Below, in pieces: positions 13,922 to 63,861 of a stretch of 64,000 bases of DNA. The translations under genes and the position numbers were made by a program. Each line of letters opens with the position of its first letter. Position 1 is the stretch's first letter. Source of the DNA: a virus. Its lineage: Duplodnaviria; Caudoviricetes. The stretch lies in the IMG/VR virus record IMGVR_UViG_3300000101_000005; one strand, 5' to 3'. Below the pieces are notes generated by a model that saw only the letters and a list, made by a program, of their open reading frames with translations, was not told where the DNA came from and did no database searches.

Positions 13922-13925
13922 CACT

Positions 13926-43181: not shown

Positions 43182-43187
43182 ATTACT

Positions 43188-43217
43188 ATTATACCTTCTT
43201 TCCACCAGGTTTGTCAA
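43188..43217 (-). promoter_or_regulatory. Sigma70-type promoter TTGACA-N18-TATAAT for queE
   Basis: Perfect hexamers on the minus strand; the -10 element ends 6 nt before the queE ATG. Confidence 0.75.
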
Positions 43218-44186: not shown

Positions 44187-44753
44187 CTAACTCCCATAAT
44201 TTCCAACGTTTTCCCACGGATAAACTAACCAAACATCTTCTTCTGATTTGTTTATCTCGTGACATGTATAACTAACAGGTAATACAGTTTCACTTGCTAA
44301 GTTATCTGTTAGCGTAGCAATACGAACATTACTACCCCAAATTTGATTCCATAATGGACTATCTGGTAAACAGTTGCTTTGCCAATCTTTTGCAATCCAA
44401 TTAAATGTAGCACCAGTATCATTAATATCATCTACAATAAGAATTTTTTTACCTTCTGGTAAATTGTTAAACTGTCCCATCTCAGGAGCATAACCACCAT
44501 CTTCATCGTAGCCGTAAGCATCTTCAGCCATCCAGGAATTACTTTCAGGCCCGATATCGGAATCACGTAACCTAACATCTAGTGTGTGCATTTTAGTGTT
44601 TAAGTAATGGCTGAGCATTACTGCTGGGATTAACCCACCACGAGTAATACCTACAATATACTCAGGCCGCCAGTTGTCAGCATAAATTTGTCTAACAATC
44701 TCTAAGCAATATTGCTTTATGTCATTATGTGTTAAGTATCTTTTTTTAGTCAT
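44187..44753 (-). CDS. Type I phosphoribosyltransferase (purine salvage-like)
   Basis: IVGITRGGLIPAVMLSH, PRPP-binding loop ILIVDDINDTGATF, and a C-terminal WLVYPWE as in xanthine/guanine PRTs. Confidence 0.85.
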   Translation of the reverse strand: MTKKRYLTHNDIKQYCLEIVRQIYADNWRPEYIVGITRGGLIPAVMLSHYLNTKMHTLDVRLRDSDIGPESNSWMAEDAYGYDEDGGYAPEMGQFNNLPEGKKILIVDDINDTGATFNWIAKDWQSNCLPDSPLWNQIWGSNVRIATLTDNLASETVLPVSYTCHEINKSEEDVWLVYPWENVGNYGS

Positions 44754-48954: not shown

Positions 48955-49299
48955 TTATTTTTTGTTTAGTAGTTCCCAGGCTTTGTAATGTTCTTGTAGT
49001 TTGCTAAATTCTTCCCATTTAGCTTTTAGCTCTGGGTGTTCGTCACAAAGGTCGTTATCTACGATGTAAGTGTTTTTCTTAACTTGCACTGTGCCAATTG
49101 GATCGCCATTTACTCCCCAAGGGCGACTAGCAGCCCAGCCATCATCTGGCCATTCTGTGTGCATTTCAACACTGTCCAGTCTTTGGCGACCAACACTGTC
49201 CAGTCTTTGGCGACTCTGATAATCACTAAAGTCTCTAGCGTATATTGTTAAGCCGCCGTCTGGTGACTCGTAAATTTTAGGTTTTTTAGTATCTGCCAT
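48955..49299 (-). CDS. Hypothetical protein
   Basis: Likely start ATG 49299 (MADTKKPKIYESPDGG...), overlapping the PMM 3' end by about 52 nt. Confidence 0.5.
   Translation of the reverse strand: MADTKKPKIYESPDGGLTIYARDFSDYQSRQRLDSVGRQRLDSVEMHTEWPDDGWAASRPWGVNGDPIGTVQVKKNTYIVDNDLCDEHPELKAKWEEFSKLQEHYKAWELLNKK
49167..49214. repeat. Perfect 24-bp tandem duplication (in-frame, RQRLDSVG/E twice)
   Basis: CAACACTGTCCAGTCTTTGGCGAC at 49167-49190 and 49191-49214. Confidence 0.95.
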
Positions 49300-49961
49300 G
49301 TTTCTTCCCAGTTTTTTACGTGTGATACTTGACAAGTTTTTCTCTTTTTTATGCGACTAGCAATACTGTAGTCATTTCCACTGGGATCGCAACGATCACC
49401 AAAGAAGTGTATAGGATTGCCGCTAAAGTATTTAAGTACTTGGGATTTATCATTACCTTTAGGATACACGTCAATGCCTGTTTCTCCACCAACTTCTGCA
49501 GCTAAGTCATGAAACTTGCTTCTAATTAATACTGAAATACGTTGTCTTTCGTTATTTTCTTGATCCCATTTGTAATAGTTGGTTCTTTGGTCACCAACTG
49601 AGTTTCTCCCTACTATACTAAAATTAAGCATACCTGGCCTAACTTCAATATGGTTACCGTGTCTTTCTAAATATGGGCTATTGGATAAAGTTTGCTCTAA
49701 AAACTCTATTAATTCGTTACTGGGTTTCCAGCTATTTTTTGCTATATGCTTCCCTCGTAGATAAACATCACTGCCACTGCAATTAAAACAATAATGTGCC
49801 TGCTTAAACACATCCTCTCCTACTTGCTCTATAGTTTTTGGATAATCACTGCCTGTAACTAAACTAAAATTTGGCAATGTAAGAAAGAACTTTTTAAAGT
49901 CTGGATCCATCTGACCCCGGCTTGGGGTCAAAGTTCCGTCCACATCGAATAACAATATCAA
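49248..49961 (-). CDS. Eukaryotic-type phosphomannomutase (HAD subfamily IIB)
   Basis: LFDVDGTLTPSR, LVTGSDY, HIEVRPGMLNFSIVGR, GGETGIDVYPKGNDK and FFGDRCDPSGNDY match PMM1/2-type motifs; TTG start. Confidence 0.85.
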   Translation of the reverse strand: MILLFDVDGTLTPSRGQMDPDFKKFFLTLPNFSLVTGSDYPKTIEQVGEDVFKQAHYCFNCSGSDVYLRGKHIAKNSWKPSNELIEFLEQTLSNSPYLERHGNHIEVRPGMLNFSIVGRNSVGDQRTNYYKWDQENNERQRISVLIRSKFHDLAAEVGGETGIDVYPKGNDKSQVLKYFSGNPIHFFGDRCDPSGNDYSIASRIKKRKTCQVSHVKNWEETWQILKNLKFTSHQTAA

Positions 49962-50393: not shown

Positions 50394-50406
50394 TGTTTTT
50401 CTCCTT

Positions 50407-51093
50407 CTACTTACATACGAATCCTTGCTGAAGTTTAATATTGTCCATAAACTCTTTTTTACAACCAGGATCGTTATGGAAACTACCACGCAAGATAGTT
50501 GTTTGTGTCAAACTACTAGTGGCCATGATGCCACGGTTCTCACAACATCCATGAGTTGCATGTATATAGACACCAACATTATCACTGCCTGTGGCTTGTT
50601 GAATCTCATTAGCAATAACCATGTTAAGTTCTTCTTGCAGCGTTCCACGTCTAGCACACCATTGTGCAATTCTTGTGTATTTACTTAGGCCAATAAGTGT
50701 ATCAGCAGCAATAATGCCAATGTATGCAACTCCACTTACAGGCTGATGATGGTGTGAACATACACTTTTTATCTCACTACGTACTACTAACATACCATCA
50801 TAGCTATCAGTAGTGTTAGGAAAGGCAGTTGCGTTGGGTCTGGGCAAGTACCTACCACTCATAATTTCGTTAATGTACATCTTAGCCAATCGTCTGCCAG
50901 TGTCCATGCTGTTTGGATCATTCTCTTTATCGATTACCAAACTATCTAACACTGCTTCAAACTTTGGTGTAAGTTCTTCAATAAGTAGATCTGTTTCTCC
51001 ATCCTGGATAAATTCACTAATGTTGTCACCAGCCCAGTAACGAGCGCCAGATTCTTGTATTCGTTCTCTAATAATTTCGGAAGTCTTTGTCAT
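50407..51093 (-). CDS. folE: GTP cyclohydrolase I
   Basis: DTGRRLAKMY, SVCSHHHQP, GLSKYTRIAQWCARR..LQEEL and ATHGCCENRG (Zn ligands C, H, C). Confidence 0.92.
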   Translation of the reverse strand: MTKTSEIIRERIQESGARYWAGDNISEFIQDGETDLLIEELTPKFEAVLDSLVIDKENDPNSMDTGRRLAKMYINEIMSGRYLPRPNATAFPNTTDSYDGMLVVRSEIKSVCSHHHQPVSGVAYIGIIAADTLIGLSKYTRIAQWCARRGTLQEELNMVIANEIQQATGSDNVGVYIHATHGCCENRGIMATSSLTQTTILRGSFHNDPGCKKEFMDNIKLQQGFVCK

Positions 51094-52056
51094 ATACTAT
51101 GTTCCTTTTCTTTCTCTGTATTTTTAATTAATTTATAAATTTCTTTAGCGTATAGCTTGTGAGTCTCTGGTCCTGGATGCTGGCCGTCTGATCCGAGGTC
51201 TAAAAATAATTCTGAACTTTCTCTTCCCCATAAATTGTGTAGCATAATTAGGTTTGTATTATTTAGATGATGTACAATATTCCTATTTAGAACAGACACA
51301 AGTATTAATTTAGCTTCTATTTTCTGGCAAAAGTTAATAACTTGGTAAACACTGGTTAAATTTTGATAATGTCTATTACTATTATCTAAATCATCTATGC
51401 TACATCCGTATAAATTTCCGGCTTTTACATGCTTAACACAGTTATCAGTATAAAAAGGATATCGATTATCACTTGTCATCCCCCATACTACTGTATCCCC
51501 TTTGCGTATATCAGATCTTAAAATCTGATCTGCTTGCCAGCATATTGATGACGCACTACAAGATAAAAAACTTACTGGTAAACCAAGAGAAGTTGCTAGT
51601 AATTGGCCATATCTCTCATTCTCGGTTACCCCTGTACCCTGGGTTATACTACATCCGCATGCCCATAACTGAGAGGAATCGGTTTTTCTGTTATCAACTA
51701 ACGCTAATATTGATTGACGATCTTTAGTAACATCAGGAGGCGTGTAATTTTTAACTTCGCATCTAAAACTAAAAACTTCTAAATAGTCTTCAGACCATTT
51801 TTTCATATCATTATGAGTCCATTTACCATCAGGCGGAGGAGCATAGACAATTTTATCAGCTTGCTGAAGTGTCAATCCTAGATTAAATATATTTCCGATG
51901 TCGGCTATACTAGTATAATAAGTTCCTGCGGATAAATTGCTAAAGTTATTGGCAGTTAATAACTGAGCATTTTCATCATATGAACGTGTTAAGTCACTAA
52001 GATAAAGACCAACATCACCTAGGTATATTGTAATTGTCATACACTATGTTCCTTTT
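51087..52056. repeat. 23-bp direct repeat (22/23 identical) at 51087-51109 and 52034-52056, bracketing one gene
   Basis: TTGTCATA(T/C)ACTATGTTCCTTTT; on the minus strand AAAAGGAACATAGT(A/G)TATGACAA, comprising an RBS and a start codon. Confidence 0.85.
51090..52040 (-). CDS. SGNH hydrolase-like domain protein with an N-terminal extension
   Basis: WACGCSITQG, NLSCSASSI-like block, VVWGMTSDNR and C-terminal DGQHPG. Confidence 0.5.
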   Translation of the reverse strand: MTITIYLGDVGLYLSDLTRSYDENAQLLTANNFSNLSAGTYYTSIADIGNIFNLGLTLQQADKIVYAPPPDGKWTHNDMKKWSEDYLEVFSFRCEVKNYTPPDVTKDRQSILALVDNRKTDSSQLWACGCSITQGTGVTENERYGQLLATSLGLPVSFLSCSASSICWQADQILRSDIRKGDTVVWGMTSDNRYPFYTDNCVKHVKAGNLYGCSIDDLDNSNRHYQNLTSVYQVINFCQKIEAKLILVSVLNRNIVHHLNNTNLIMLHNLWGRESSELFLDLGSDGQHPGPETHKLYAKEIYKLIKNTEKEKEHSI

Positions 52057-53114
52057 TTTAATAAATTGTTGATCATAATATTACTGCTTAAATACTCTCT
52101 CTTTAATCTTTCTTGTTGAGCAGTAAGTAAATCTTTATATGCTGAATAGCGTGTTAATCTGTCATCTATAAACCTAATTAGTTTATCTTTGTGCTTAATG
52201 TAACTTGGCATATCCTGCGTCCATTTACTTGGATATTTAAACTCGTCATGGTACATTTCTGTATAACTGCATCTGTCAGGAACAATAGGAATCGCTCCTG
52301 TAAGTACTGCTTCCATTACACTAATGCCTAAGTTCTCATGCAATGCACAACTAAAAATAGCTTTACTAGTACCCATTTTAGCATAGTAATTAGCTTTATC
52401 CAAATTCATTTTTTGAGTAATAACCATGTCAAAGTTATCTGATAAGTCTTCTGCCATTAAAGGTTGTTTGTCAGCATTATATCTGTGTGGCCACATAACA
52501 GTATCTTGTTTGGGAGTATCCTGATAAGCCACTAGATCTTTAACTATCAGTTCATGAGGCTGTCCACTCCTAATTGCTTTGTGATGGTATTTGACAGGAA
52601 TGTCTAAATTTTTTAAAAACATTGCACGATGGCTTTCACTAGCATAGTAATTGCAATCACTGCTATGGAACCAACTAGTCTCAACATGATTAGGCCAGGG
52701 CTTTTGCATCTTGTAACCCAAAATGTCACTGGGATCATAAGCACCAGCATGCCAAATACTATGGATTTCTACAGGAATCTCCAGCAAATCACTCATATAC
52801 TTAATTGGTGTAATAATAAAGTTCCATGCATCTGTAACCAAAAACTTGTCACCTGGTTTAATTTCTCCAGCAGTAAACATCTTACTTACAGCATATGATT
52901 GCCATGCTTTGTATACATTAGTTGCACCAAAGTTTAAAAACGCACCTTCTGTTGTAGACTCTGTAATAGTTTCTTCACCGTCAATAGTAGCTACACGGAA
53001 GTTAAGATTTTCCTGTGCGATGCGTTCTTCCAACATAGCAGGGATATTAGTGTACCACTGCTTTGTGTAACGCTGATCAATGGGCTCAATTGGGATAATA
53101 TAGATGGTGTTCAT
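52044..53114 (-). CDS. GT-B fold glycosyltransferase (GT4-like)
   Basis: C-terminal HENLGISVMEAVLTGAIPIVPD (E-x7-E motif), and N-terminal WHAGAYDP. Coupled (ATGA) to the tgt/dpdA gene. Confidence 0.75.
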   Translation of the reverse strand: MNTIYIIPIEPIDQRYTKQWYTNIPAMLEERIAQENLNFRVATIDGEETITESTTEGAFLNFGATNVYKAWQSYAVSKMFTAGEIKPGDKFLVTDAWNFIITPIKYMSDLLEIPVEIHSIWHAGAYDPSDILGYKMQKPWPNHVETSWFHSSDCNYYASESHRAMFLKNLDIPVKYHHKAIRSGQPHELIVKDLVAYQDTPKQDTVMWPHRYNADKQPLMAEDLSDNFDMVITQKMNLDKANYYAKMGTSKAIFSCALHENLGISVMEAVLTGAIPIVPDRCSYTEMYHDEFKYPSKWTQDMPSYIKHKDKLIRFIDDRLTRYSAYKDLLTAQQERLKREYLSSNIMINNLLKKGT

Positions 53115-54577
53115 CTTGCATCGTCCTCTTCCTGACTACTTTCAATGTCAGTGTTAGTTGTTGCATCATCTTCAAAGTTAAACAAACTATCAAACGTAGT
53201 TGAGTTTTCCAGCTTCTTCATACGGCTTAGTTTAGCAATTAGTTTTTCATGTTTAGCTAGTTCCGCATCAATAGCATCCATGCTCTGGCCATAATCTTTA
53301 GCAAATAGCTCATCACAGATCTGATTAAACTCCAAGTACTGACTGGGAACCCAGTGATGCATTCCGCTTGGTCTGGACATAAGCCTGTTTGCCATCTGTA
53401 CTGCATCAATATGCTTGTAAATATTATGTCCCATCATCAAGCAATATGCAAAACTATCCCAGCTAGTTCTACCTTCTTTGCCAATCTTGTTAAGCTCGCC
53501 TGGATCATACCAATTAATATCTTTCCAAGTGCAACGCTCACCAATTGGGCTATCGTCCCAGGGCCAGGGAGCATCTTTGCCATATGGTTCTTTTTCATCA
53601 ACCATTTTAACCATGTTATATCCCATGCGCTTTGTATCAAATACATTGTGCGTGTATACTTGGCCGTTAGCTGTAGCAATAAATGGACTAGCACAATCCA
53701 TGCTAATTGTAAGATCAGGATTAACATGTTTTCTAATAGCACGTTGCATTGCTGAGTACATGATGCCCTGATCCAATCTACCTGTACCCAGGAAGTGTAT
53801 CCACTCTGACTTTTGTAACAAGTCTAGTTCTTTAAGAAATAGTACACGCCTAAGACTGTGGTTTAAGTTTGTTTTTTGTACGCCACCAAATGCCCAGCCA
53901 TGTGTTTCACCTACAACAGGCAAACATACCTTTTCAAACCAATCATCCGCTTGTTCATATGTACTACCCTGACATACGTTTAAGAACTTTGTCTTATTCT
54001 GCCTGTGTTTAAAGAAGTAATTGTTATTAGCAATAGTTGCATCCCTAAACTCATTGTAGTTGTTTAGACCGCACTTGGGCTTGCCAGTTTCTTCGTTAAT
54101 AAAGTTAAGTCCGTTTGTAGGAATATCCAGTACCATGCTGTAGTCTGCTGTATTCTCCAACCAGTTTAATACCTTGCCACGTTGCTTGTCAGTAGCTGAA
54201 CACTGGCCTTCGGGCTCTAGCCAGTTACCCTGCCACACGCCTTTACTAATCTGGAAGCCGCCGCTGTCACCAATTAGTGTAGTCCATTCCTTGTCGCGAC
54301 CATGAATCATTCCTTCTTTAGCTGGCGCTTTTTGCATATCTAGTTCAGCATGACCTGCACTGTAAAGTACATGATCATATGTAAAGTATCCTTGGTTAGG
54401 GTTAAGGAAGTTTAACCCTTCAATACCATTTTCAAATTTCTTAGGGATACGGTCTGCTTCGACATAGTTACCAGTTGCTTGTTGCTTGCTAACGTAACTA
54501 CTATAAAACCCGCTTAGTGCTGGGGTAAAGATAGCGTAGTCATGATTCTTTTTGCTTAGATCGATCTTATTTGCCAT
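53111..54577 (-). CDS. TGT/DpdA-fold guanine transglycosylase (deazaguanine-inserting)
   Basis: IGDSGGFQI (catalytic Asp), MVLDIP, LNVCQG, GWAFGG, IHFLGTG and ISMDCASP appear in canonical TGT order, followed by LMMGHN. No CxCxxC zinc motif is visible. Confidence 0.8.
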   Translation of the reverse strand: MANKIDLSKKNHDYAIFTPALSGFYSSYVSKQQATGNYVEADRIPKKFENGIEGLNFLNPNQGYFTYDHVLYSAGHAELDMQKAPAKEGMIHGRDKEWTTLIGDSGGFQISKGVWQGNWLEPEGQCSATDKQRGKVLNWLENTADYSMVLDIPTNGLNFINEETGKPKCGLNNYNEFRDATIANNNYFFKHRQNKTKFLNVCQGSTYEQADDWFEKVCLPVVGETHGWAFGGVQKTNLNHSLRRVLFLKELDLLQKSEWIHFLGTGRLDQGIMYSAMQRAIRKHVNPDLTISMDCASPFIATANGQVYTHNVFDTKRMGYNMVKMVDEKEPYGKDAPWPWDDSPIGERCTWKDINWYDPGELNKIGKEGRTSWDSFAYCLMMGHNIYKHIDAVQMANRLMSRPSGMHHWVPSQYLEFNQICDELFAKDYGQSMDAIDAELAKHEKLIAKLSRMKKLENSTTFDSLFNFEDDATTNTDIESSQEEDDAR

Positions 54578-54606
54578 TAATGTGCCTCTAACTTTTATAT
54601 TGTTTT

Positions 54607-54635
54607 ATTATATGATTATTTAGACGATTAGTCAA
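54607..54635 (-). promoter_or_regulatory. Sigma70-type promoter TTGACT-N17-TATAAT for the tgt/dpdA-GT-folE unit
   Basis: Near-perfect consensus on the minus strand. The spacer also contains a TAAATA motif; an AGAGG ribosome-binding site follows. Confidence 0.75.
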
Positions 54636-55245
54636 CATTAATATTAATTTTGCTACAGTCTGGGTACTTGGATACAAATTGATCCATGGATTTAAGATTA
54701 GGCATTTCGTCAGGGCGACTTAGTAGCTCAATGCCTCGAGCGGCATCTTCTAATCTCATATTATAATGAAACCCTAGGTGCCAGGTCTTTTGGTTTTCCC
54801 AGGGGGAAATAAACAAGTGTCTTCCGTCATATGCCATGGCCTTAAGAACTTGGTAATCATAACCTCTATCCAAGAGTATTGCTCCACCATGACCAATCTC
54901 TAGTCGCTTTGTGTGTCCAAAACTTAAACACTGCATACGACCTCTAACATACATCTGTTCGTCAAATGCTCTAGCACTATCCCAGATGTTAGTTGGGGCA
55001 AGACGGTATTCATATTCCCAGGTTATCTCTGGATCATAATATACATCTAATCCTAGTTTGTGAACAACCATTGGCACACTAATGTAGGTATGACGAGGAA
55101 GATTAATTGGATTCTTCCATTTTTGGAATCGTAAACATAACTCTATTGCATGGGTGCAACTATCTGTAAGAACAACATATGGAGCACCAGTGTACTCACT
55201 TATAAGATTCTCAAATTTTGTTAACGTATCGTAACTTAACTTCAT
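54628..55245 (-). CDS. Short DegT/DnrJ/EryC1/StrS-family PLP aminotransferase
   Basis: VLTDSCTHAIELCL, PRHTYISV, IWDSA, LSFGHTK (PLP Lys), GGAILL and GFHYNM. Only 205 aa. Confidence 0.7.
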   Translation of the reverse strand: MKLSYDTLTKFENLISEYTGAPYVVLTDSCTHAIELCLRFQKWKNPINLPRHTYISVPMVVHKLGLDVYYDPEITWEYEYRLAPTNIWDSARAFDEQMYVRGRMQCLSFGHTKRLEIGHGGAILLDRGYDYQVLKAMAYDGRHLFISPWENQKTWHLGFHYNMRLEDAARGIELLSRPDEMPNLKSMDQFVSKYPDCSKININVD

Positions 55246-55775
55246 AGATAAAATCCACTTACTTGAAGGGTGTACTTGTCTTTCATGCCTGCATTGGCAC
55301 TAACGTGTAAATGATTATGGTCCCAGACATATCCTTCGCCAGCATTCCAATGTGTGCTATTGTGCCATACATCGTCGTCTTCGTATTGAATAAATTCTCC
55401 AACACTCCAGTCCTGTAGGTACATGTTTGCTCTTACTTTTAACCTAGCATCATCAGGAAACCGTTTGTTAATTTGAAAGAAAGTATCTCTATGTACTGGA
55501 ACAACATTACCCGGCGGCTGTAATATACTGCTTACAGTAATAACTTCCATGCCTAGTTGGTTTCCTAGGTCATCGTAGTCAACCTGTTCATTGGTCCACC
55601 ATAATTGTCTAATTAATGTGTTTCCCATGTCATACGTTTCTGGAAACCCGCCGAATCGTTCATGTATGTCTGTTAACTCGTGTACTTGATGAGAAATGCA
55701 ACTTCCAGAATGAACAGTATAATCTGCATTTATAAAAACATCTAGGTTATAATCTATCTTTGTTTTTTTAATCAT
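55242..55775 (-). CDS. 2OG-Fe(II) oxygenase-like protein
   Basis: PPGNVVPVHRD...WDHNHLHVSANAGMKDKYTLQVSG gives HxD...H...K. Confidence 0.7.
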   Translation of the reverse strand: MIKKTKIDYNLDVFINADYTVHSGSCISHQVHELTDIHERFGGFPETYDMGNTLIRQLWWTNEQVDYDDLGNQLGMEVITVSSILQPPGNVVPVHRDTFFQINKRFPDDARLKVRANMYLQDWSVGEFIQYEDDDVWHNSTHWNAGEGYVWDHNHLHVSANAGMKDKYTLQVSGFYL

Positions 55776-56329
55776 GGTCGGTGTCCTGTCAACTGGAGAG
55801 TATATCTATCTTCAATACCCATGTTGCCTGCCATATGTAAAGTGTTACTGTTCCAAAAGATGTAGTCGCCGGCTTTCCAGTTAGTAATTGGGTTCCCGTC
55901 TACTTCACTAATATGGCCACTTTTCCAATCTTCTAAAAATACAATTACTCTAAAGCAATCTTCTAGATCACAATCAAATATTTTTCTATATAACTCGTAT
56001 GTATCGCCGTGTGTTGGTAGGTAATGACAAGTTTGCATTTTATAATAGCTTGTGCCAACGTTAGTAACGTTAAATGTATCTTCAAACCATTTTATTATCT
56101 TTGCACTCCAAGAAGGTTGATGAGCTTTTGACATGTCATACAGTAGCCCGCCGTAATGATCTTTGTCTGGCCAGTATCCGTATTTCTTCCATTTAGTAAG
56201 ATCGTCAAGGTTATTAAATGGTTTATACTGGTAATTTAAATATTTGAATGATTCTTGAGTCCAAAAAGGTTCAATATGACCCCGTCCCCAGTTATCGTGT
56301 GTTTCCGTAATGGATGACTGTGTAATCAT
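55772..56329 (-). CDS. 2OG-Fe(II) oxygenase-like protein (paralog)
   Basis: YLPTHGD...IFWNSNTLHMAGNMGIEDRYTLQLTG. The likely start is ATG 56329, overlapping the ugd 3' end. Confidence 0.7.
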   Translation of the reverse strand: MITQSSITETHDNWGRGHIEPFWTQESFKYLNYQYKPFNNLDDLTKWKKYGYWPDKDHYGGLLYDMSKAHQPSWSAKIIKWFEDTFNVTNVGTSYYKMQTCHYLPTHGDTYELYRKIFDCDLEDCFRVIVFLEDWKSGHISEVDGNPITNWKAGDYIFWNSNTLHMAGNMGIEDRYTLQLTGHRP

Positions 56330-57509
56330 TGTTTTCCTTACTAAATTTACGCCATGGGTCAACAATAACACTGCCTGGCAATACTTCGCAATACATTTCA
56401 TCTGCGTAGTTTTGATTTGTATACTGATATGTAGTACTTGCGTTATGCGCTAAAAGAACTATAGCTTTATACGGGCCTGGATCTGGATGTGATAATGGAT
56501 CAATCATAATAGGATTAAATCCTTTTTCGTTTAAGTAGTGTGATACAAGTAAACTATAACTTCCATCTAGATATGGAACTCCAGGCTTATATGCGATCCC
56601 GTGCATTAGTACAGGCAAGTCATGTTCTTCTGCTAAATTTATTAAAAACTCAGCCATGTTCTTTGCTTGTTTTTCTCTGGCGTTCATAATACTGTCAAAC
56701 AAGTCATAACCAAGATCTAATTCTTCAGCCATCCAGCGTAGTGCAATATTGTCTCTTGGATGACACGCACCCCCATCACCCATGCCTGCTGTCATATATT
56801 GTGGACCCATAATACGCTTTGTACTTTTAGCAAGTGCATCTGTAACTATATCAACATTTATGTGGCCGATCTTTAGTGATACGTCTTGTATCATGTTTAC
56901 TAAACTGAGCTTGGCACTAATAAATGTATTATAAAATATCTTAATACTTTCGGCTTCTTCATATGTGCCAACAGCATATCGTGGATCATTTTCCATGATA
57001 GTTTTGTAAAAGTCTAACAGTTTTCTAGCATCACCAGTTTCGCTTCCATCATTAGTACCAATAATAACCATTTCAGGATTAACCATATCCCAGGCAATAC
57101 TTCCCATGGCAATTAAGTATGGATTGTATATAAACCTAGCGTTATTAATTAACGGAACAATTTCCCTACGGATAGTCCCTGGTAATACTGTACTAATTAA
57201 AACAATAAGAGTAGACTCATTGGCATAACTGTCTATCTCTGCTATGACTTTTTTAACCTGGGTATAGTCAAAATCTTTGTTTGGCAAGTGTGCAGTAGGC
57301 TTGCTTCCGTCGTAATCAGGATGATGTGGAGTCTGTATAGCTACGAATACAATATCCTGTCCTTCTACTGCTAATTTTATATCATCTACAACGTTAACTG
57401 AGCCACTGACTCTTTCAATGATATCGTAACCTGTAACTACGTAATCCTTGGCCATAGCTTCAGCACAGGTCAGGCCTAATTTGCCCAAGCCTATAAATCC
57501 AACTTTCAT
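56292..57509 (-). CDS. ugd: UDP-glucose/GDP-mannose dehydrogenase family protein (copy 2)
   Basis: KVGFIGLGKLG, FVAIQTP, YNPYLIAMG, GGACHPRD and GIAYKPG. Confidence 0.85.
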   Translation of the reverse strand: MKVGFIGLGKLGLTCAEAMAKDYVVTGYDIIERVSGSVNVVDDIKLAVEGQDIVFVAIQTPHHPDYDGSKPTAHLPNKDFDYTQVKKVIAEIDSYANESTLIVLISTVLPGTIRREIVPLINNARFIYNPYLIAMGSIAWDMVNPEMVIIGTNDGSETGDARKLLDFYKTIMENDPRYAVGTYEEAESIKIFYNTFISAKLSLVNMIQDVSLKIGHINVDIVTDALAKSTKRIMGPQYMTAGMGDGGACHPRDNIALRWMAEELDLGYDLFDSIMNAREKQAKNMAEFLINLAEEHDLPVLMHGIAYKPGVPYLDGSYSLLVSHYLNEKGFNPIMIDPLSHPDPGPYKAIVLLAHNASTTYQYTNQNYADEMYCEVLPGSVIVDPWRKFSKENNDYTVIHYGNTR

Positions 57510-57512
57510 ATA

Positions 57513-58346
57513 CTAACTTCCTTGTAACAATTCGTCTACGCCTTTATACACATCTTGCGTAGGTTTAAAACCTAATTCATTCTTTGCTTTACTAATATCC
57601 ATGGTGCCACGCTGGGGGTATTCAAAGTCATTTAACTCTATCTTAACTGATCCTGATCCGACCTTTTCGCATATATATTTGGCAACATTTTCCAGAGGCT
57701 GGCTTCTGCCATAGCTTATATTATAGACTCTGGAACTCATTACTGGAGCATCAAATCCCAAAATAATTCCTTGCACAACGTCGTCAACGTGTGTAAAATC
57801 TAAACTATTGTCATATCCTTTAACAATAAGCTCTTGATTGTTTTTAGCTAAATTAATAAACTTGGGCAGTACTCGAGATGGATCATCGTCTTGACCATAA
57901 ACTGCGGTAGGTCTAATAATAGTATAATTATCGTGTAATTCTTTTACAATACTTTCCCCGGCCAGCTTTAGTTGTCCGTATAAGTCCAGTGGAGCCCTGC
58001 TGTCGCTTTCACTAACACCAGATGATGAGCTCCAATTACCATAGACCATACTACTGCTAATATATGTAAAGTGGGATTCGTTGTAAAAACGCAGGCTATT
58101 CATTAACCCTGATGTCATAGTCTTAATTGCTTCAACAGGGTTACGTCTTACTGCTCTTAGGTTAGCCTCAGCGGCTAAGAAAACTACATTGCTGTATTTT
58201 ACATCAGTGATAAAACTATATTCGTTATTAATGTTTCTGTTTGATTTTTTGTCAATTACGTCTACAGAATGGCCTTGCTGTGTTAGTTTGGCTTTTAAAT
58301 GAGTTCCAATAAACCCTTCACCACCTATAAGTAATATAGTTTTCAT
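57513..58346 (-). CDS. NAD-dependent nucleotide-sugar epimerase/dehydratase (extended SDR)
   Basis: GGEGFIG, ISSSMVYG, YGQLK (YxxxK), IRPTAVYG and DFTHVDD. Confidence 0.88.
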   Translation of the reverse strand: MKTILLIGGEGFIGTHLKAKLTQQGHSVDVIDKKSNRNINNEYSFITDVKYSNVVFLAAEANLRAVRRNPVEAIKTMTSGLMNSLRFYNESHFTYISSSMVYGNWSSSSGVSESDSRAPLDLYGQLKLAGESIVKELHDNYTIIRPTAVYGQDDDPSRVLPKFINLAKNNQELIVKGYDNSLDFTHVDDVVQGIILGFDAPVMSSRVYNISYGRSQPLENVAKYICEKVGSGSVKIELNDFEYPQRGTMDISKAKNELGFKPTQDVYKGVDELLQGS

Positions 58347-58678
58347 GTTAACATATGCTCCGTGGTTGAGCCAAGGGATAGTAACAGTTTATGTTCTTCC
58401 TTGGCAAAGTGGAGAACAACAGTTGGATTGTCTAAGCCCTGTGAGCTAAAACCATCCCACCACCAGTCAACGTTGTAGATTAATCCGTGTTTTCCCAGCG
58501 AGTTGCTTATAGCACATAGTGCATCAACTGGTGTATACCCTGCGTTTAATGCGCCACCCTCACCTGGACGATGGTTTTTTCTACTGGTAAACATGTTTGC
58601 TGACACGCTGGCCTTAAATGGAAATTCTTCTAGATTATATACTGGTGTAAAACTTGCTGTTCTGTTGGAAAGTTTCAT
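58343..58678 (-). CDS. Hypothetical protein
   Basis: 111 aa, coupled to the epimerase gene. Confidence 0.5.
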   Translation of the reverse strand: MKLSNRTASFTPVYNLEEFPFKASVSANMFTSRKNHRPGEGGALNAGYTPVDALCAISNSLGKHGLIYNVDWWWDGFSSQGLDNPTVVLHFAKEEHKLLLSLGSTTEHMLT

Positions 58679-58681
58679 TAC

Positions 58682-58900
58682 TCATTGCCTATTTCCAAAG
58701 ATGTTTCGTCCATAAATTTTTGCATCACGCATCCAGTTATTACTGATACGTGTGCCTTCTTTGAGAAAGCGATACTGCTTGTATACTTCGCTTTCTTTAT
58801 TATACAAGTCTGCTTCGTTGTAAGGGTGTCCAAAGGTTTTACAGAATCTTAAAAAGTCTTGTAAGTCATCAAAAACTTTGGTAACTTCTGGGTTCTTCAT
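58682..58900 (-). CDS. Hypothetical protein
   Basis: 72 aa in the operon. Confidence 0.5.
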   Translation of the reverse strand: MKNPEVTKVFDDLQDFLRFCKTFGHPYNEADLYNKESEVYKQYRFLKEGTRISNNWMRDAKIYGRNIFGNRQ

Positions 58901-58904
58901 TTTT

Positions 58905-59363
58905 TTATGTGTCCTTGTTGTAGAATGTTAATGAACCGTTTTCACCATCTTCGCTTATTTCAATTTGAACGTCTCTGCTAGGATACCGTTCGTTAATTAT
59001 TAAGTATAACGCATCGCTAATCATTTCGCAACTTTTAAAATCAAGTTCTAGTGTATTATCTGAATAGAGTTTTTCAAGCCAACGTTTAAATTGGATAAAC
59101 TCAATATCGCGATCGTCATGGAATACTTCAATCCATACCTTAAAGTGAAAAATGTGTCGATGAACATAACCTAAAAAACTAACGTCATATTCATCACCAG
59201 TCGCTAAACGTGGATCGTCTAACGCTGCTGGGTATTTATGCAGGCCTTCTTTCCTAAATGTAACCCAGATCATTTTACTTGCTTTGTTAACACGTTCTTC
59301 CAGAGCTTTTTCACGCATATTGCGTAAGATAAACTCATCATGACTTTCTCTTTTTTGTACCAT
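58905..59363 (-). CDS. queD: QueD-like 6-carboxytetrahydropterin synthase (T-fold)
   Basis: FRKEGLHKY...LGYVHRHIFHFKVWIEV...EFIQFK...SCEMI...IEISEDGENG parallels the QueD/PTPS layout (F..H, HxH, E.IA, V.V.E). Confidence 0.65.
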   Translation of the reverse strand: MVQKRESHDEFILRNMREKALEERVNKASKMIWVTFRKEGLHKYPAALDDPRLATGDEYDVSFLGYVHRHIFHFKVWIEVFHDDRDIEFIQFKRWLEKLYSDNTLELDFKSCEMISDALYLIINERYPSRDVQIEISEDGENGSLTFYNKDT

Positions 59364-59374
59364 AACTGTATCCT

Positions 59375-59665
59375 TTAGTGTACTGTAGTTGAGTCGACTG
59401 CGATATCATCTAGATTATATGCTGGAACATCTTTAGCTGTATCTGTAATAGCTTCTACCATTAGCAAAAAATCTTCCTCAGATAAGCAAGTTTTGTATAA
59501 ACGCATCGCTTGTGCTAGTAGTACACCGGCCAAGTTTAATGGTTTTTCACCGTTGTTCATTAACTTAACAGATATTGCAAACACTCTCTGATATAAGTCA
59601 TCAATCTCTTCTGGACTAAGATCAATAATATCATCTAATTCGTCCATCATTTCTAGTTCTCCCAA
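59375..59665 (-). CDS. Hypothetical acidic helical protein
   Basis: 96 aa; no motif recognised. Confidence 0.5.
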   Translation of the reverse strand: MGELEMMDELDDIIDLSPEEIDDLYQRVFAISVKLMNNGEKPLNLAGVLLAQAMRLYKTCLSEEDFLLMVEAITDTAKDVPAYNLDDIAVDSTTVH

Positions 59666-60234
59666 ACTCGGGCGTAATAACCCTTTCCTGTGGTGTCTCC
59701 ACCATCGTTATCTAATTCTTCACCGTTATATGATAATAGATCTAACATTGTTCCATCTGGAGTGTCTGTTAGACAAAACTCTAGCTTAGAAAGATCTATT
59801 GGCTCGTTTGTTACAAGTTCGTATTGACCAAAGTTACCTTTTTCAGCACTTGAACCGGAAAACACATATTCAGCATTTTCAGCACATTCTTCTTCATCTA
59901 CGTGTGTAATAATTGCATCTTGTTCTTCTTCAAAATCATCCCAGGACTGGCCTATTATCTGATTGCCATCTTCGTCCTCTATATCAATATACGCTCCACC
60001 AGCATCTGCACCCCAGTGGTGTAGCAAATCATCAAGCTCATTCCAGTGACCAAGGAACCTTTTGTCAGCATCGTCAAAGACAGGATTTTCATCAGTGTCA
60101 TCCCAGGGATCATCAAACGCATGAGCAATAATGTCTTCTTCTTCTAAATCTTTCCAAAAGTCATATTGCTCTTTAGTTAATGTGCCATGGACCTGTTCTG
60201 ATCCATATCCAGATATTGATATACTGTATTTCAT
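59653..60234 (-). CDS. Hypothetical highly acidic protein
   Basis: 193 aa, very Asp/Glu-rich; GGAG ribosome-binding site. Confidence 0.55.
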   Translation of the reverse strand: MKYSISISGYGSEQVHGTLTKEQYDFWKDLEEEDIIAHAFDDPWDDTDENPVFDDADKRFLGHWNELDDLLHHWGADAGGAYIDIEDEDGNQIIGQSWDDFEEEQDAIITHVDEEECAENAEYVFSGSSAEKGNFGQYELVTNEPIDLSKLEFCLTDTPDGTMLDLLSYNGEELDNDGGDTTGKGYYARVWEN

Positions 60235-60238
60235 ATTA

Positions 60239-60445
60239 TTACTCCATAAAATTAAATGATTGTTGACGCTCTAAGAATGTAATTTCATCTTTTACTGATA
60301 GCTTTTTCTTTTTAAGATCATGAATCTTAAACTCAATGTCAGCTTCGGTGCTTATAATTTTTTCTAATTCAGTAACAGCGTTGTCTAGCCTCTGGTGCTG
60401 GTCGTGTAAATTAGCTATTCTTCTATTAGTACTATCAGTTTTCAT
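60239..60445 (-). CDS. Small coiled-coil protein, DUF465/YdcH-like
   Basis: LHDQHQRLDNAV...IHDLKKKKLSVKDEI matches the DUF465 pattern (H..LD..I...LKK.KL.LKD.I). Confidence 0.7.
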   Translation of the reverse strand: MKTDSTNRRIANLHDQHQRLDNAVTELEKIISTEADIEFKIHDLKKKKLSVKDEITFLERQQSFNFME

Positions 60446-60458
60446 TATATAGCTCCTA

Positions 60459-61337
60459 TTATAATTTTACTTTAGAATTTACTACTGTTTGAGCACCCAT
60501 GTCTAGTTTGTGGGCACACATATTACAACAACTCTGCGGTCCTTTTTGTTCGTTAAACCATTCGTCTATTATAACATCCTGACTGTATAAATTCAACCTT
60601 TTGTAGTTATTAAACCAGTCTTTCCACGTATTTTTTTCGTTAAGACCTAAACTGTCGCCATTTATAAGCAATCCTGCCACTGCTGGGCACTTGTATAAGT
60701 TACCTTCAAACATATTAACAAACGTTCTGCATCCACAAACATTCCAACTAGAATGAAAATCATTGCTAAAATAGTTGTAATTAGGCTTACTTTCTTCTGC
60801 TGTATTTTTATAAAAACTCCACCATACAGTTTCATTAAAACTTTCTGTAAGTTGTATGTGACATTCGTCTGAGTTTATCCAACCTCGCTGTTCTCCGTAC
60901 CCATTTTGTACTGGGCCGTTTTCGTTTGTCCAGGGCTGAAACTTACCTGTTGCTAGTGCCTGATTAATAAAATTCCATACTTTAGATCCGTACTCAGGCA
61001 TGTGCTGACTTATATTAAAACTAACATTGTAGGTATCTATCCAGGATAGATGTTCTTCTGAAAGTCGTAATCCATTAGTTTGTATCACTAGATTGCTGTC
61101 CGGCCAATATTGCCTGCAACCATCTAACCACATTTCTAAGTCAGGATTAAGCAAGGGCTCACCGCCAAACATATTAATATATGCTGGTTGTATCTTTGAA
61201 CTCCAAAACTCTAAGTAATCATTATTGTATCTAGTTACACCTTTTACAAGTTTACTATCACTGAATGTTTGGCATCCAGCACAACTTAGGTTACAAGTTT
61301 GCACAATAAACATGTCTAGATTGGGGATGTCTATCAT
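60459..61337 (-). CDS. Radical SAM protein
   Basis: CNLSCAGC, MFGGEPLLNP, IQTNGL and C-terminal C...YKCP...CCNMC (SPASM/twitch-like). Confidence 0.82.
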   Translation of the reverse strand: MIDIPNLDMFIVQTCNLSCAGCQTFSDSKLVKGVTRYNNDYLEFWSSKIQPAYINMFGGEPLLNPDLEMWLDGCRQYWPDSNLVIQTNGLRLSEEHLSWIDTYNVSFNISQHMPEYGSKVWNFINQALATGKFQPWTNENGPVQNGYGEQRGWINSDECHIQLTESFNETVWWSFYKNTAEESKPNYNYFSNDFHSSWNVCGCRTFVNMFEGNLYKCPAVAGLLINGDSLGLNEKNTWKDWFNNYKRLNLYSQDVIIDEWFNEQKGPQSCCNMCAHKLDMGAQTVVNSKVKL

Positions 61338-61912
61338 AGTTCTTTAGTAAGCTCTATGTCAGGTTGGATAAATTTTTTTACTTCGTCATTATTCTTACAT
61401 GAATTGTAAGATAAATCAATTAAATGTTTGGTAAAATTACTAACTTTATATGTTGTATCAGGAATAGGAATGTCGGACAACTGCTGAAAGTATTGTGCCA
61501 TATTGTCAATACTAACTAAAGTTACATAAGAAAATATTGATAACCAATCACTTTGTAACCTGATGTGCTGATCTTCTGTCCAGTTGTTTAGCCAATCTTC
61601 TTTAAGTATACTCTCTATCATCTCAGTAAGTGCACCGTCACTTAAACGTTCGACGGCACTTTCCATGACAAAGTACTCATGCGGCTTGTTAAAGGCGTTG
61701 TTGCCAGTCCACATTTTTATCATTTTTTCTGTAAATCCGTGTGCGAATCTGGGAAGTGGATCTCGTACTACACTAAATGTTGGAAGACTGCTATTAATAT
61801 TGTCTTCTTCAGTTTCTGTCCAACCAATAGTCCTGCACCATTGTTCAAGACTATTACTAGCACAACATCGTAGTATTGCTATATTAAATGTGCCGCCGTT
61901 AAATACCAGCAT
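61334..61912 (-). CDS. Sulfotransferase-family-like protein
   Basis: FSVVRDPLPRF (3'-phosphate-binding-like) and DQHIRLQ. The 5'-PSB loop is degenerate (ILRCCASNSL). Confidence 0.45.
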   Translation of the reverse strand: MLVFNGGTFNIAILRCCASNSLEQWCRTIGWTETEEDNINSSLPTFSVVRDPLPRFAHGFTEKMIKMWTGNNAFNKPHEYFVMESAVERLSDGALTEMIESILKEDWLNNWTEDQHIRLQSDWLSIFSYVTLVSIDNMAQYFQQLSDIPIPDTTYKVSNFTKHLIDLSYNSCKNNDEVKKFIQPDIELTKEL

Positions 61913-62507
61913 TAACAAACTCGCTTATAAAAGAGTTGTAATAATCTAAGTTCCCTTGATGACTAAGATGAAATTTATCATCGTCTAACATTCCGTTATC
62001 ATGTGCCCACTTATTCATAGGCGGGCTTTGAAATAAGGAATTATCTAAATCTTGTAATGTTAAGTACAAAGACCGTGCGCCACTGTCTTGTACTATTTTT
62101 TTAACCTGGTTAATCCATGCCAGGGTTTCCATCCTTTGGCCGTGCTCGCTGTAATACTCACGCATTAGTGGAGCCAAATATCTTTTACCTACCGGATTAT
62201 TATTCCACGCACCACGTGGTCCTGCTGTACACCATGCTATACAATTTTTAAGTTCCCGTTGTCTAATACTGGGAACGTCTTGTAGTGTTTGGTTGAACGC
62301 ACTATTCTTGTCTAATACGAGATCAATGCGTTCAACCTCACTAAATTGAACTATAATACTATCTTTACTACTTAATGGTATCTGGTCTACACAAGCATAT
62401 ATGTATTTGTTACCAGCACCTGGCTCGCTGTAATTTATATGATCGTACTTTACAAACTTAGGCCAGTAGTAATCGGCACTATAACTACATCCAACTATGT
62501 ATAGCAT
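61899..62507 (-). CDS. SGNH hydrolase-like protein
   Basis: VGCSYS, NYSEPGAGNKYI, IIVQFS..ER and C-terminal DKFHL. Confidence 0.5.
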   Translation of the reverse strand: MLYIVGCSYSADYYWPKFVKYDHINYSEPGAGNKYIYACVDQIPLSSKDSIIVQFSEVERIDLVLDKNSAFNQTLQDVPSIRQRELKNCIAWCTAGPRGAWNNNPVGKRYLAPLMREYYSEHGQRMETLAWINQVKKIVQDSGARSLYLTLQDLDNSLFQSPPMNKWAHDNGMLDDDKFHLSHQGNLDYYNSFISEFVNAGI

Positions 62508-62518
62508 AAATTGCTACT

Positions 62519-63121
62519 TTACTTCTTTTCTCCGAGAGCACCATTAATGTACTTCAGTAGAACACCATATGCTGGAAGGAATACAATTAGTCCGACTGCA
62601 ATTTTTAACAAGGTTTGTGATCCTGCGATCGCAACCCAGTTAGCCGCCATATACTCGTCTGCTGAGTTATTAAATGCAACAGCAAAGAATGTATATGTGT
62701 CAATGACGTTTGCAACAACAGTTGACAATGCAGGTGCTAACCACCACGCATTCATACGCTCACGAATGTATTGGAATACATATACATCAAGCAATGTGCC
62801 TACTGCATATGCTGTGGCACTAGCAAAACCAATACGCAATGCTACACTTTCTGGAGCACCTTCTGCAAGTACAACAGCAATACTGCCAATAATTGCTAAC
62901 GGATATGCCGCCGCAATCGTTGCTCTAGCAATTTGTTTTCCTAACATCCTAACAGTTAAGTCAGTTGCTAATACTACTAGCGGGAATGTAAATGCCGCCC
63001 ATGTTAGTTTAACACCAAAAATTTCTACCGGAATAGAAACTAAAGCATTAGAGATTACAATGACTACCACATGCAATAGTGCAAGTTTCACCATCATTTT
63101 TTTATCGATATTCTTAAACAT
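62519..63121 (-). CDS. yhhQ: Queuosine-precursor (preQ0/preQ1) transporter, YhhQ/VUT family
   Basis: Multi-TM protein with ISNALVS, AFTFPLVVLATDLTVRMLG, RIGFASATAY..G.LLDVYVF and STVVANVIDT..FF.VAF. Confidence 0.8.
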   Translation of the reverse strand: MFKNIDKKMMVKLALLHVVVIVISNALVSIPVEIFGVKLTWAAFTFPLVVLATDLTVRMLGKQIARATIAAAYPLAIIGSIAVVLAEGAPESVALRIGFASATAYAVGTLLDVYVFQYIRERMNAWWLAPALSTVVANVIDTYTFFAVAFNNSADEYMAANWVAIAGSQTLLKIAVGLIVFLPAYGVLLKYINGALGEKK

Positions 63122-63129
63122 ATATTTTC

Positions 63130-63861
63130 CTATTTTGTTTGTGCAGGCAACAAATAATCATAAACTGCTAATCCGCTGTCTACCGTAATTTGCGTTACGC
63201 CGTCATCACTGATCTTGTAAGTGCTATCACCACTAAGGCTTAAAATCTTACTTACTTGATCCACTGGCCATGCCCATGCCTTGGATAATGATCCGCCAAC
63301 ATCATGCTGGAATACAAACTCACCAGCGTGTGTACTTGCATCACCAAACGCAAACTTAAGATCTTTGCCTTCCGACTTAGCAATAAAAACACCTTGTTCG
63401 CTGTTAGCTGATACCATCATCTTTAAACGTGCGATACTGGCCACAGTAGGCACAAAGTCAACACCCCATTTAACTGAACGCATTTGTACAGTTTTAAGTT
63501 GATCATTAACAATGTCACTACTCATGAAACGGTAATCGTTTTGGAAGTCTCCAGATTTGTTTTCGAAGTGTAGTCCAACTGGCACAGTTTCGCCATTGCG
63601 ATCCTGTAAATTGATGCTAACTACAGCATCTTCTGCGTACTCTGGGATACGCAAAATCACACCTAGTTTATCCAAGTTAGGCATACCAAACGTGCCCATA
63701 AATTCAGCTACAGGGTTGTGGAACTTTCCTTTGAGAATAACACTTCTGTCTTCTGCAAGTCCTTCAATACTAGTAGTAGTATCATCTCCTGTAACTTTAA
63801 CTAAGTCAATAAACCCTAGATTGTGCGTATGTTGCACAATATCAAGTAAAAAATCTTTCAT
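63130..63861 (-). CDS. Probable DNA polymerase sliding clamp (gp45-like)
   Basis: 243 aa with a two-domain beta/alpha pattern resembling jumbo-phage clamps (GTFGMPNLDKL, KISDDGVTQITVDSGLAVYDYLLPA); own strong promoter. Confidence 0.55.
   Translation of the reverse strand: MKDFLLDIVQHTHNLGFIDLVKVTGDDTTTSIEGLAEDRSVILKGKFHNPVAEFMGTFGMPNLDKLGVILRIPEYAEDAVVSINLQDRNGETVPVGLHFENKSGDFQNDYRFMSSDIVNDQLKTVQMRSVKWGVDFVPTVASIARLKMMVSANSEQGVFIAKSEGKDLKFAFGDASTHAGEFVFQHDVGGSLSKAWAWPVDQVSKILSLSGDSTYKISDDGVTQITVDSGLAVYDYLLPAQTK

Follow-up and report, generated by a model that had tools for sequence, protein, structure and literature searches.

A glycosyltransferase gene linked to a predicted 7-deazaguanine DNA-modification module in phages

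The closest described system to the one treated here is that of the Cellulophaga phage phiST, which carries FolE, QueD, QueE, DpdL and DpdA3 and makes plain dDG, the deoxynucleoside of 7-deazaguanine, to 100% with DpdL and with no glycosyltransferase (GT) (PMC10516641). DpdL was predicted to decarboxylate 7-carboxy-7-deazaguanine (CDG) and was described by a motif LxxxHRHxF, its decarboxylase activity being unproven in that study (PMC10516641). The Acidovorax phage ACP17 contains a GT gene together with those for QueD, FolE, DpdA, DpdL and QueE; expression of its dpdL and dpdA without the intervening GT gene gave no detectable dDG, and missing enzymes were suspected (PMC10516641). We have analysed a related gene set in a stretch of 64,000 nucleotides of a large marine phage, from the Caudoviricetes record IMGVR_UViG_3300000101_000005 of IMG/VR (this whole stretch is called the window), in which a GT gene overlaps the gene of a transglycosylase with the fold of tRNA-guanine transglycosylase (TGT). 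A previous sequence-only reading of this DNA had proposed that the phage inserts a 7-deazaguanine into DNA or host tRNA and then adds a sugar. All the genes it named are real and located on the minus strand, at or near the positions given; the observation was confirmed and the interpretation was supported in part. Our own reading, to which we assign a probability of roughly 0.5, is that a replication-linked module replaces G in the phage's own DNA with a 7-deazaguanine and that the GT adds a sugar to that base. A literature search, the coverage of which did not extend to a review in MMBR from 2024 or to the supplementary material of Cui 2023, retrieved no paper connecting a GT with deazaguanine modification of DNA.

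The window resembles phiST in having FolE, a putative QueE, a DpdL homologue with the LxxxHRHxF motif and a distant TGT-fold enzyme, in the absence of any QueC seen, and in the proximity of these genes to replication genes. The two differ in the transglycosylase, which has 488 aa and a clamp-peptide tail in the window and 259 aa in phiST (DpdA3), and in that phiST is devoid of the GT, of a 72-aa protein (p72) and of the sugar genes, and contains a QueD that was not found in the window. ACP17 is similar in its GT (30% identity, E = 8e-39), in its DpdL, encoded next to the GT (54% identity, E = 5e-48), and in the polymerase-like peptide that ends its DpdA; unlike the window, it has a DpdA of only 424 aa, its GT and DpdL genes come in the order GT-DpdL, and its cluster lacks genes for sugar nucleotides. 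In the Pseudomonas jumbo phage PA5oct, a long TGT-like protein, GT, DpdL, a phosphoribosyltransferase-like (PRTase-like) protein and QueE are encoded in one run (EST35_0316 to EST35_0322) with a clamp homologue upstream, whereas sugar-tailoring genes are missing from that stretch and all its products but QueE are annotated as hypothetical.

Linkage of the glycosyltransferase to deazaguanine genes

A set of 80 IMG/VR loci was picked solely by GT similarity (38–77% identity), and the open reading frames (ORFs) of the loci were searched with profiles and with the window proteins; counts refer to those 35 in which each flank measured at least 6 kb. Of these 35 loci, 34 encoded DpdL, with a long TGT-like protein in 32, QueE in 32 and FolE in 31, and several GT loci without the long TGT type carried one of the ACP17/X1 type instead. 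In the reverse test, 80 loci were selected by DpdL, and all 55 of those with enough room contained both the GT and a TGT-like gene. Co-occurrence of the GT clade with dpdA, which the sequence-only reading had suggested as a check, was thereby found in GT-selected and in DpdL-selected loci. Each of the two probes matched more than 590 IMG/VR contigs. The distance from the end of DpdL to the start of the GT was usually 320 nt or less, and the gene for p72 lay between the two. Homologues of p72 (median pI 9.3) were present in 45 of the 80 GT-selected loci, typically in the order DpdL-p72-GT, and about ten loci showed the order DpdL-p111-GT, where p111 is a protein of 111 aa; neither p72 nor p111 matched any family. 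Some loci contained the GT without any other sugar gene.

Among cultured phages, the GT was found only beside deazaguanine genes, namely in PA5oct and ten relatives, ACP17, Phosso, BCSR5, X1 and BUDD, whose hosts belong to five groups (Pseudomonas, Acidovorax, Sinorhizobium, Burkholderia and Xanthomonas). Homologues with 24–42% identity adjoin genes for TGT-like proteins, QueE and FolE in PA5oct, ACP17, Phosso, BCSR5 and X1; in the Xanthomonas phages X1 and BUDD the identity is only 24–26%, and in ACP17 the genes run DpdA-GT-DpdL-QueE. Given co-occurrence in both tests and a repeated pairing across five cultured-phage groups, the GT probably belongs to the deazaguanine module as a functional part. 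It could also be thought that the GT and the sugar genes are ordinary auxiliaries for host-envelope or virion glycans, placed beside deazaguanine genes through inherited order only. Marine phages often carry genes for Ugd, epimerases, aminotransferases and 2-oxoglutarate (2OG) oxygenases, genes for phosphomannomutase (PMM), cytochrome c and a subtilase are located nearby, and in structure the GT has GT4 enzymes for glycans and small molecules as its neighbours. However, the linkage (34/35 and 55/55) is kept despite rearranged gene orders, it persists in Burkholderia and Xanthomonas phages at the lowest GT identities (24–26%), and the GT is present where other sugar genes are absent, which makes this explanation improbable.

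In agreement with the overlapping GT-B gene previously described, the GT gene overlaps the stop of the upstream transglycosylase gene by 4 nt. In VIA alignments the GT model (predicted local distance difference test, pLDDT, 95.8) reached Z 27.0 with sucrose-phosphate synthase (6kih; 317 residues aligned), 25.8 with BshA and 18.7 with alpha-GT of T4, which places it among the GT-B/GT4-like retaining enzymes with two Rossmann-like domains. Across 55 diverse members E268 was invariant and E260, R211 and K216 were nearly invariant; we take E260-x7-E268 to be the EX7E motif and R211/K216 to be the pair that binds the donor diphosphate. Based on this conservation, the enzyme is probably active. PF00534 was matched by 34 of the 55 members, the family contained 1084 cluster representatives at E < 1e-3, and the GT is 36% identical to EST35_0317 of PA5oct. 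Like alpha-GT and beta-GT of T4, whose substrate is 5-hydroxymethylcytosine, it would be a phage GT-B enzyme decorating a non-canonical base. It is, however, no closer to alpha-GT than to dozens of GT4 enzymes, as acceptor it would use a purine analogue that lacks the hydroxymethyl group, and its gene is linked to deazapurine genes and not to a dCMP hydroxymethylase. The best structural match in Swiss-Prot was the tRNA-queuosine alpha-mannosyltransferase QTMAN (GTDC1; Foldseek E = 7.5e-11), a GT-B enzyme that adds a sugar to a derivative of 7-deazaguanine within a nucleic acid; its acceptor is the cyclopentenediol of queuosine, which the window pathway cannot make. The E-value of this match was only 2-fold better than those of generic GT4 enzymes, its TM-score was lower and its identity was 15%, and the QTMAN N-terminal family was absent among the Pfam matches of the 55 members, so that the GT was not placed with QTMAN.

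Genes for Ugd-like, short-chain dehydrogenase/reductase (SDR), short DegT and cupin proteins accompany the GT in changing combinations in 57 loci, mostly between GT and folE (GT-Ugd-FolE, GT-DegT-FolE, GT-SDR-FolE and GT-SDR-Ugd-cupin-DegT-FolE). The window has the fullest set, sited between the DpdL/p72 pair and the transglycosylase/GT pair. A variable cassette on a constant GT is the pattern expected if the donor sugar is being diversified. The idea of a self-made, possibly amino or uronic, sugar is supported to the extent that the sugar genes are a variable accessory of the GT. The gene read as ugd codes for an NDP-sugar dehydrogenase (TIGR03026, E = 8e-44, below cut-off). The one read as an epimerase codes for an extended SDR of no assignable subfamily, with full-length matches to the PDB sequences of UDP-glucuronate decarboxylase, UDP-glucose 4-epimerase and dTDP-glucose 4,6-dehydratase. 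The proposed pyridoxal phosphate (PLP) aminotransferase is indeed DegT/ArnB-like (PF01041, E = 2.8e-14), but it is only half-length; it represents a conserved short form (192–207 aa in the family) that keeps the lysine motif SFxxxK...GGA, and it had no match among PDB sequences. Such a set of dehydrogenase, decarboxylase-type SDR and aminotransferase recalls the route to UDP-4-amino-4-deoxyarabinose (UDP-Ara4N). The two supposed 2OG oxygenases were recovered as paralogous cupin/2OG-Fe(II) oxygenase-like proteins that retain HxD...H. Atlas features related the first to viral clusters (0.98), in part of PF05118; the second matched by phmmer the same ORF of L003, an 81%-identical relative, as the first did (E = 5.9e-13). 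A cupin search against the sequences of solved structures gave no match.

The gene for a 316-aa protein located in the variable slot between GT and folE had been described as an inserted SGNH-like gene. The insertion was confirmed, since the gene is absent from all 166 related loci, while the SGNH assignment comes only from language-model leads (DUF6071/GDSL; Atlas features 0.91–0.93); no HMM matched the protein.

The transglycosylase and its target

The product of the gene upstream of the GT was confirmed as a TGT/DpdA-fold transglycosylase by exhaustive structural alignment, with VIA Z values of 18.7 to ArcTGT, 18.2 to QTRT2, 17.2 to TGT, 16.8 to DpdA (7ui4) and 13.9 to Cap10, versus 11.4 to the next TIM barrel. 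The model was built on 44 relatives (pLDDT 85.6; Foldseek E = 5e-9 to the TGT of Z. mobilis), and the protein has more than 7000 metagenomic relatives of about 515 aa. The motifs GDSGGFQ (D104) and FDCASP (D294) were invariant in the 44 members; we equate these aspartates with D102 and D280 of TGT by motif likeness and not by residue-level superposition. No conserved Cys cluster of the zinc-site type (CxCxxC) was present in the invariant or nearly invariant columns of the 44 members. The protein scored 25 bits against TIGR00449 (E = 7.6e-6), below the cut-off of 47.6, matched no Pfam family (and so was not placed with the canonical bacterial tRNA TGTs of PF01702) and no PHROG, and its profile found nothing among the sequences of solved structures. 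Its similarity to DpdA3 of phiST (CGPG_00065) was marginal: hhalign gave a probability of 59.8% over 90 columns and BLASTP an E-value of 4e-4 over 112 residues, and a jackhmmer search seeded with DpdA3 found nothing in the loci set. Iterative search and hhalign (92.7%) joined it to DpdA of ACP17, and it is 39% identical to EST35_0316 of PA5oct. From its sequence and model, we filed the 488-aa protein as a DpdA-like member of the TGT superfamily and not as a proven DpdA3.

The disordered tail of the transglycosylase contains ...TTFDSLFNF..., the core of which, TFDSLF, resembles the TFDDLF at the end of the L003 DNA polymerase. In L003 the polymerase C-terminus is ...NTFDDLFSFE and the transglycosylase tail ...NAFDSLFEF...; in PA5oct the corresponding peptides are ...HFDSLFGW and ...SFNSLFDV..., and in ACP17 polymerase and transglycosylase end in ...SLDDLFE and ...TLDELFE, respectively. 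The DNA polymerase of Phosso ends in ...TFNDLFTF. An F-x-x-L-F tail peptide was present in 35 of 44 TGT-like members, versus 3 of 55 GTs and none of 13 DpdLs. T4-type polymerases hold the gp45 clamp through a C-terminal peptide of this kind. A clamp gene adjoins the module in the window and has homologues in 133 of the 166 related loci. Its product had no Pfam match; it is homologous to a Phosso protein annotated as sliding clamp (E = 3e-33) and to EST35_0314 of PA5oct, and its Atlas features gave 0.98 for a viral cluster named PCNA-N and 0.93–0.95 for gp45-slide_C clusters. The PA5oct homologue bears the annotation of a structural protein detected in virions by mass spectrometry.

The DNA of PA5oct resists five restriction enzymes with G in their sites and is cut by nucleases that sense modified G (PMC12191111). 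These resistant sites, together with the polymerase-type tail peptide and the adjoining clamp gene, indicated that of the two targets previously proposed, DNA or host tRNA, DNA is the likely one. If transglycosylase and GT acted on tRNA, they would produce a glycosylated queuosine-like wobble base, as the eukaryotic QTMAN and QTGAL do. The transglycosylase scores equally high against tRNA enzymes and DpdA, and QTMAN heads the Swiss-Prot structural matches of the GT; but that lead is negligible, with a lower TM-score and no QTMAN N-terminal Pfam match, the clamp peptide and clamp gene speak for DNA, in PA5oct it is the DNA itself that has modified G (PMC12191111), and the window has no tRNA gene. 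Modification of tRNA appears quite improbable.

Base-forming genes and the proposed pathway

The gene previously called queD-like (58905-59363) codes for a DpdL homologue instead, which would be a CDG decarboxylase as predicted for this family (PMC10516641). It is 31% identical to DpdL of phiST (CGPG_00067; E = 1e-15), its sequence LGYVHRHIF contains the LxxxHRHxF motif that replaces CxxxHGH, and L64, H68, H70 and F72 are invariant across 13 members including those of phiST and ACP17. The ORF for p111 was tried as the DpdL and rejected. FolE, as expected, is encoded on the same strand (NF006824, E = 4.7e-40) and is 38% identical to that of phiST. The gene reported downstream as queE, probably correctly, is real and on the minus strand, but it lies 7 kb downstream, outside the span 50407-63121. 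Its product (319 aa) scored under the cut-off with each of the five QueE models of NCBIfam that it matched, E = 5.8e-12 being the best value; it shares 36% of its residues with the protein annotated as QueE in PA5oct (E = 4e-56) and 21% with that of phiST. A radical SAM gene (60459-61337) was discarded as queE: its product showed no similarity to QueE of PA5oct, it was present in 1 of 80 loci, and it matched only generic radical SAM/SPASM-type and viperin-like models, all far below cut-off. The YhhQ assignment held (TIGR00697, 115 bits versus a cut-off of 50.95; PF02592, E = 2.2e-24; PRK11212, E = 6.7e-57), and yhhQ was inside the module in 11 of the 55 DpdL-selected loci. Just upstream of queE are genes for a PRTase-like protein, with weak XPRT and HGPRT matches, and for a HIT protein. 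PRTase-like homologues were found in 88 of the 166 related loci and occur in PA5oct, adjoining QueE, and in phiST; HIT homologues were found in 57, including PA5oct. These two proteins might recycle guanine freed by base exchange or make a deazapurine nucleotide.

The gene set supported the proposal that the phage makes or imports a deazaguanine, and allowed us to refine the base: since DpdL is present and no QueC was seen, 7-deazaguanine (or CDG) is more likely than preQ0 or preQ1. FolE and a PTPS-like T-fold protein are also the start of pterin pathways, and a tetrahydrobiopterin alpha-glucosyltransferase (5zer, Z 21.1) was among the structural matches of the GT, so that a pterin glycoside unrelated to DNA, comparable to the biopterin glucoside of cyanobacteria, could be imagined as the product. 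This seems very remote: QueE and the TGT-fold enzyme travel with the gene set, the T-fold protein has the DpdL motif and not that of PTPS/QueD, and 5zer ranked only 19 among generic GT4 matches.

From the folds, motifs, gene linkage and shared peptide, which were directly observed, we infer all the chemistry of the following pathway, acceptor atom and sugar included. FolE, QueD (encoded elsewhere in the phage genome or supplied by the host) and QueE would make CDG, which the DpdL homologue would convert to 7-deazaguanine, in accordance with the published prediction; YhhQ could import such bases. The TGT-fold enzyme, in which both catalytic aspartate motifs are kept, would be held at the sliding clamp by its polymerase-like tail peptide and exchange G for the deazapurine in new DNA. 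The GT4-type GT, inherited with DpdL and the transglycosylase, would place a sugar donated by an NDP-sugar on the deazapurine, either ahead of its insertion or later, and the dehydrogenase, SDR, short DegT-like enzyme and cupins would remodel the donor sugar, plausibly to a uronic, pentose or amino sugar. Adjacency to DpdL, the acidic pI and the lack of a clamp peptide favour action of the GT on the free base, and the 4-nt overlap with the transglycosylase gene favours action on DNA. We are fairly confident of the first part of this pathway, the exchange of G in DNA for a 7-deazaguanine; that the final base carries a sugar we rate at slightly less than an even chance.

Several points weigh against the reading. 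7-Deazaguanine has no hydroxyl group, so the sugar would have to go to N2, to the electron-rich C7/C8 or to the CDG carboxyl; the preQ0 N-glycosides huimycin and dapiramicin are a precedent for N2. The synthesis of dDG by phiST without a GT implies that the basic pathway does not need a sugar. The GT family is acidic (median pI 5.7) and without clamp peptide, although the overall charge of the GT is uninformative as a clue to DNA binding. Prediction of a complex between transglycosylase and GT gave a score of 0.00, which is no support and no evidence against binding, and none of 150 GT cluster representatives was fused to p72, DpdL or a TGT-like domain. The window has no QueD homologue, and a common descent of the linked loci with the replication module is possible, in which case the counts would not represent independent events.

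Based on some of these points, the final DNA base could be plain and known (dDG or dCDG), with the GT glycosylating a protein of the module (p72, transglycosylase or clamp), a transient intermediate or another DNA base. The complete dDG substitution in phiST, the lack of an obvious O-nucleophile in 7-deazaguanine, the acidic GT without clamp peptide and the small conserved protein encoded almost always between dpdL and GT are in keeping with this. Nevertheless, the tightest link of the GT is with DpdL, an enzyme acting on the free base, the changing donor-sugar genes next to the GT are more in keeping with a DNA mark under diversification than with housekeeping glycosylation of a protein, and the window genes that were scanned included none for pyrimidine modification. 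We consider a plain base unlikely, though less so than the alternatives discussed above.

Extending the sugar-bearing reading beyond the window, we tentatively propose, at less than even odds, that a large phage group including PA5oct and ACP17 has a sugar-bearing 7-deazaguanine, installed at the fork by a clamp-tethered enzyme, with a lineage-specific sugar set by the donor genes adjoining the GT, here a pentose derived from a uronic acid or an amino sugar. To our knowledge, eight 7-deazaguanine derivatives occur in phage DNA, none of them with a sugar, and we know of sugars only on pyrimidines and on the adenine derivative of Mu. If true, a deazapurine with a sugar attached would add a new class to the known DNA bases, relevant to restriction, CRISPR and type IV defence, to the way such phages are sequenced and cloned, and to phages used in therapy, PA5oct among them. 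The module occurs in abundance, and cultured phages with the same gene pair exist. New here are the reciprocal GT-DpdL linkage, the distant GTs of cultured phages, the variable sugar slot and the polymerase peptide on the transglycosylase. The failure of the published reconstitution of the DpdL pathway in E. coli (PMC10516641) may likewise be due to a requirement for the GT.

Gene layout of the window and neighbouring genes

Every gene between about 38 kb and the window's end is on the minus strand (Table 1). A single ORF of 4593 aa (137-13918, plus strand) precedes a plus-strand, probably structural, gene block. The absence of tRNA genes from the window, reported earlier, was borne out, and there was no Rfam match either. 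As for queC and queF, likewise reported missing, Pfam scans found neither family in minus-strand ORFs of at least 100 aa (38–44 kb) or at least 60 aa (44–64 kb), the plus-strand structural region being outside those scans. The core genes had no match in a PHROGs search, and a DNA search of phage records gave no match.

Table 1. Features in and around the deazaguanine module, with the basis of each assignment
Feature	Position	Strand	Basis
Sliding clamp (gp45/PCNA-like), first gene upstream of module	63130..63861	-	Phosso/PA5oct homology, Atlas features
YhhQ-type queuosine-precursor (7-deazaguanine base) transporter	62519..63121	-	PF02592, TIGR00697, PRK11212
Six genes, including generic radical SAM and DUF465 protein	59375-62507	-	Few or no homologues in related loci
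DpdL homologue (QueD-like T-fold; predicted CDG decarboxylase)	58905..59363	-	phiST/ACP17 homology, LxxxHRHxF
p72 (72 aa), conserved helical N-part and basic tail	58682..58900	-	Recurrence between dpdL and GT
p111 (111 aa), recurrent between dpdL and GT in some loci	58343..58678	-	Gene order
NDP-sugar epimerase/dehydratase/decarboxylase (extended SDR)	57513..58346	-	PF01370, E = 1e-28
NDP-sugar 6-dehydrogenase (Ugd-like)	56292..57509	-	PF00984, PF03721; TIGR03026
Cupin/2OG-Fe(II) oxygenase-like protein 1, likely start 56329	55772..56401	-	Atlas features, HxD...H
Cupin/2OG-Fe(II) oxygenase-like protein 2, paralogue of protein 1	55242..55775	-	phmmer, HxD...H
Short (205 aa) DegT/ArnB-like PLP enzyme	54628..55245	-	PF01041, N-terminal part only
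50-nt gap, spanned by sigma-70-like match 54607..54635	54578-54627	-	TTGACT-17-TATAAT
TGT-fold, DpdA-like transglycosylase (488 aa), polymerase-like clamp peptide in tail	53111..54577	-	Fold and motifs
GT-B (GT4-like) glycosyltransferase	52044..53114	-	Fold, conserved residues, co-occurrence
Lineage-specific inserted gene (316 aa), possibly SGNH/DUF6071-like	51090..52040	-	Atlas features only
GTP cyclohydrolase I (FolE)	50407..51093	-	PF01227, E = 2e-36
Cytochrome c	49962-50489	-	PF00034, E = 5e-8
PMM (HAD-IIB), occasional companion	49248..49961	-	PF03332, E = 7e-33
Subtilase (1200 aa)	45250-48852	-	Subtilase domain
6-Oxopurine PRTase-like protein	44187..44753	-	PF00156, E = 3e-12
HIT-family nucleotide hydrolase/transferase	43587..43961	-	PF01230, E = 9e-10
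Probable QueE (CDG synthase)	42258..43217	-	36% identity to annotated PA5oct QueE

The promoter previously placed before the transglycosylase gene matches the sigma-70 consensus at 11 of 12 positions, is the best such match in 15 kb and falls in the only 50-nt gap; the site (54635-54607) is a consensus match only, its spacer also holds TAAATA, and sigma-70-like matches showed no excess in the region as a whole.

The genes at 59.4–62.5 kb do not travel with the module in related loci. They include the radical SAM gene and, overlapping it by 4 nt, a gene (61334-61918, minus strand) for a protein of 194 aa that weakly matches sulfotransferases; related loci almost entirely lack these two genes. 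On the other side of the module, the CycA-like cytochrome c gene lies between folE and the PMM gene. With the GTG start listed for it, this gene would overlap folE by 83 nt, and translation may in fact begin later. The PMM gene has homologues in 4 related loci, and a 957-aa counterpart of the subtilase is encoded at the same place in related TARA contigs (L003). Between queE and a gene for a 5'-3' exonuclease, a 126-aa protein is encoded (41869-42249, minus strand) that has homologues in 67 related loci, including PA5oct and Phosso. In L003, itself a TARA phage, genes of the DAHP/KDO8P-synthase family and of PsiE-like type (13720-14520) are located downstream of folE where the window has cytochrome c and PMM, indicating that the stretch after folE is variable.

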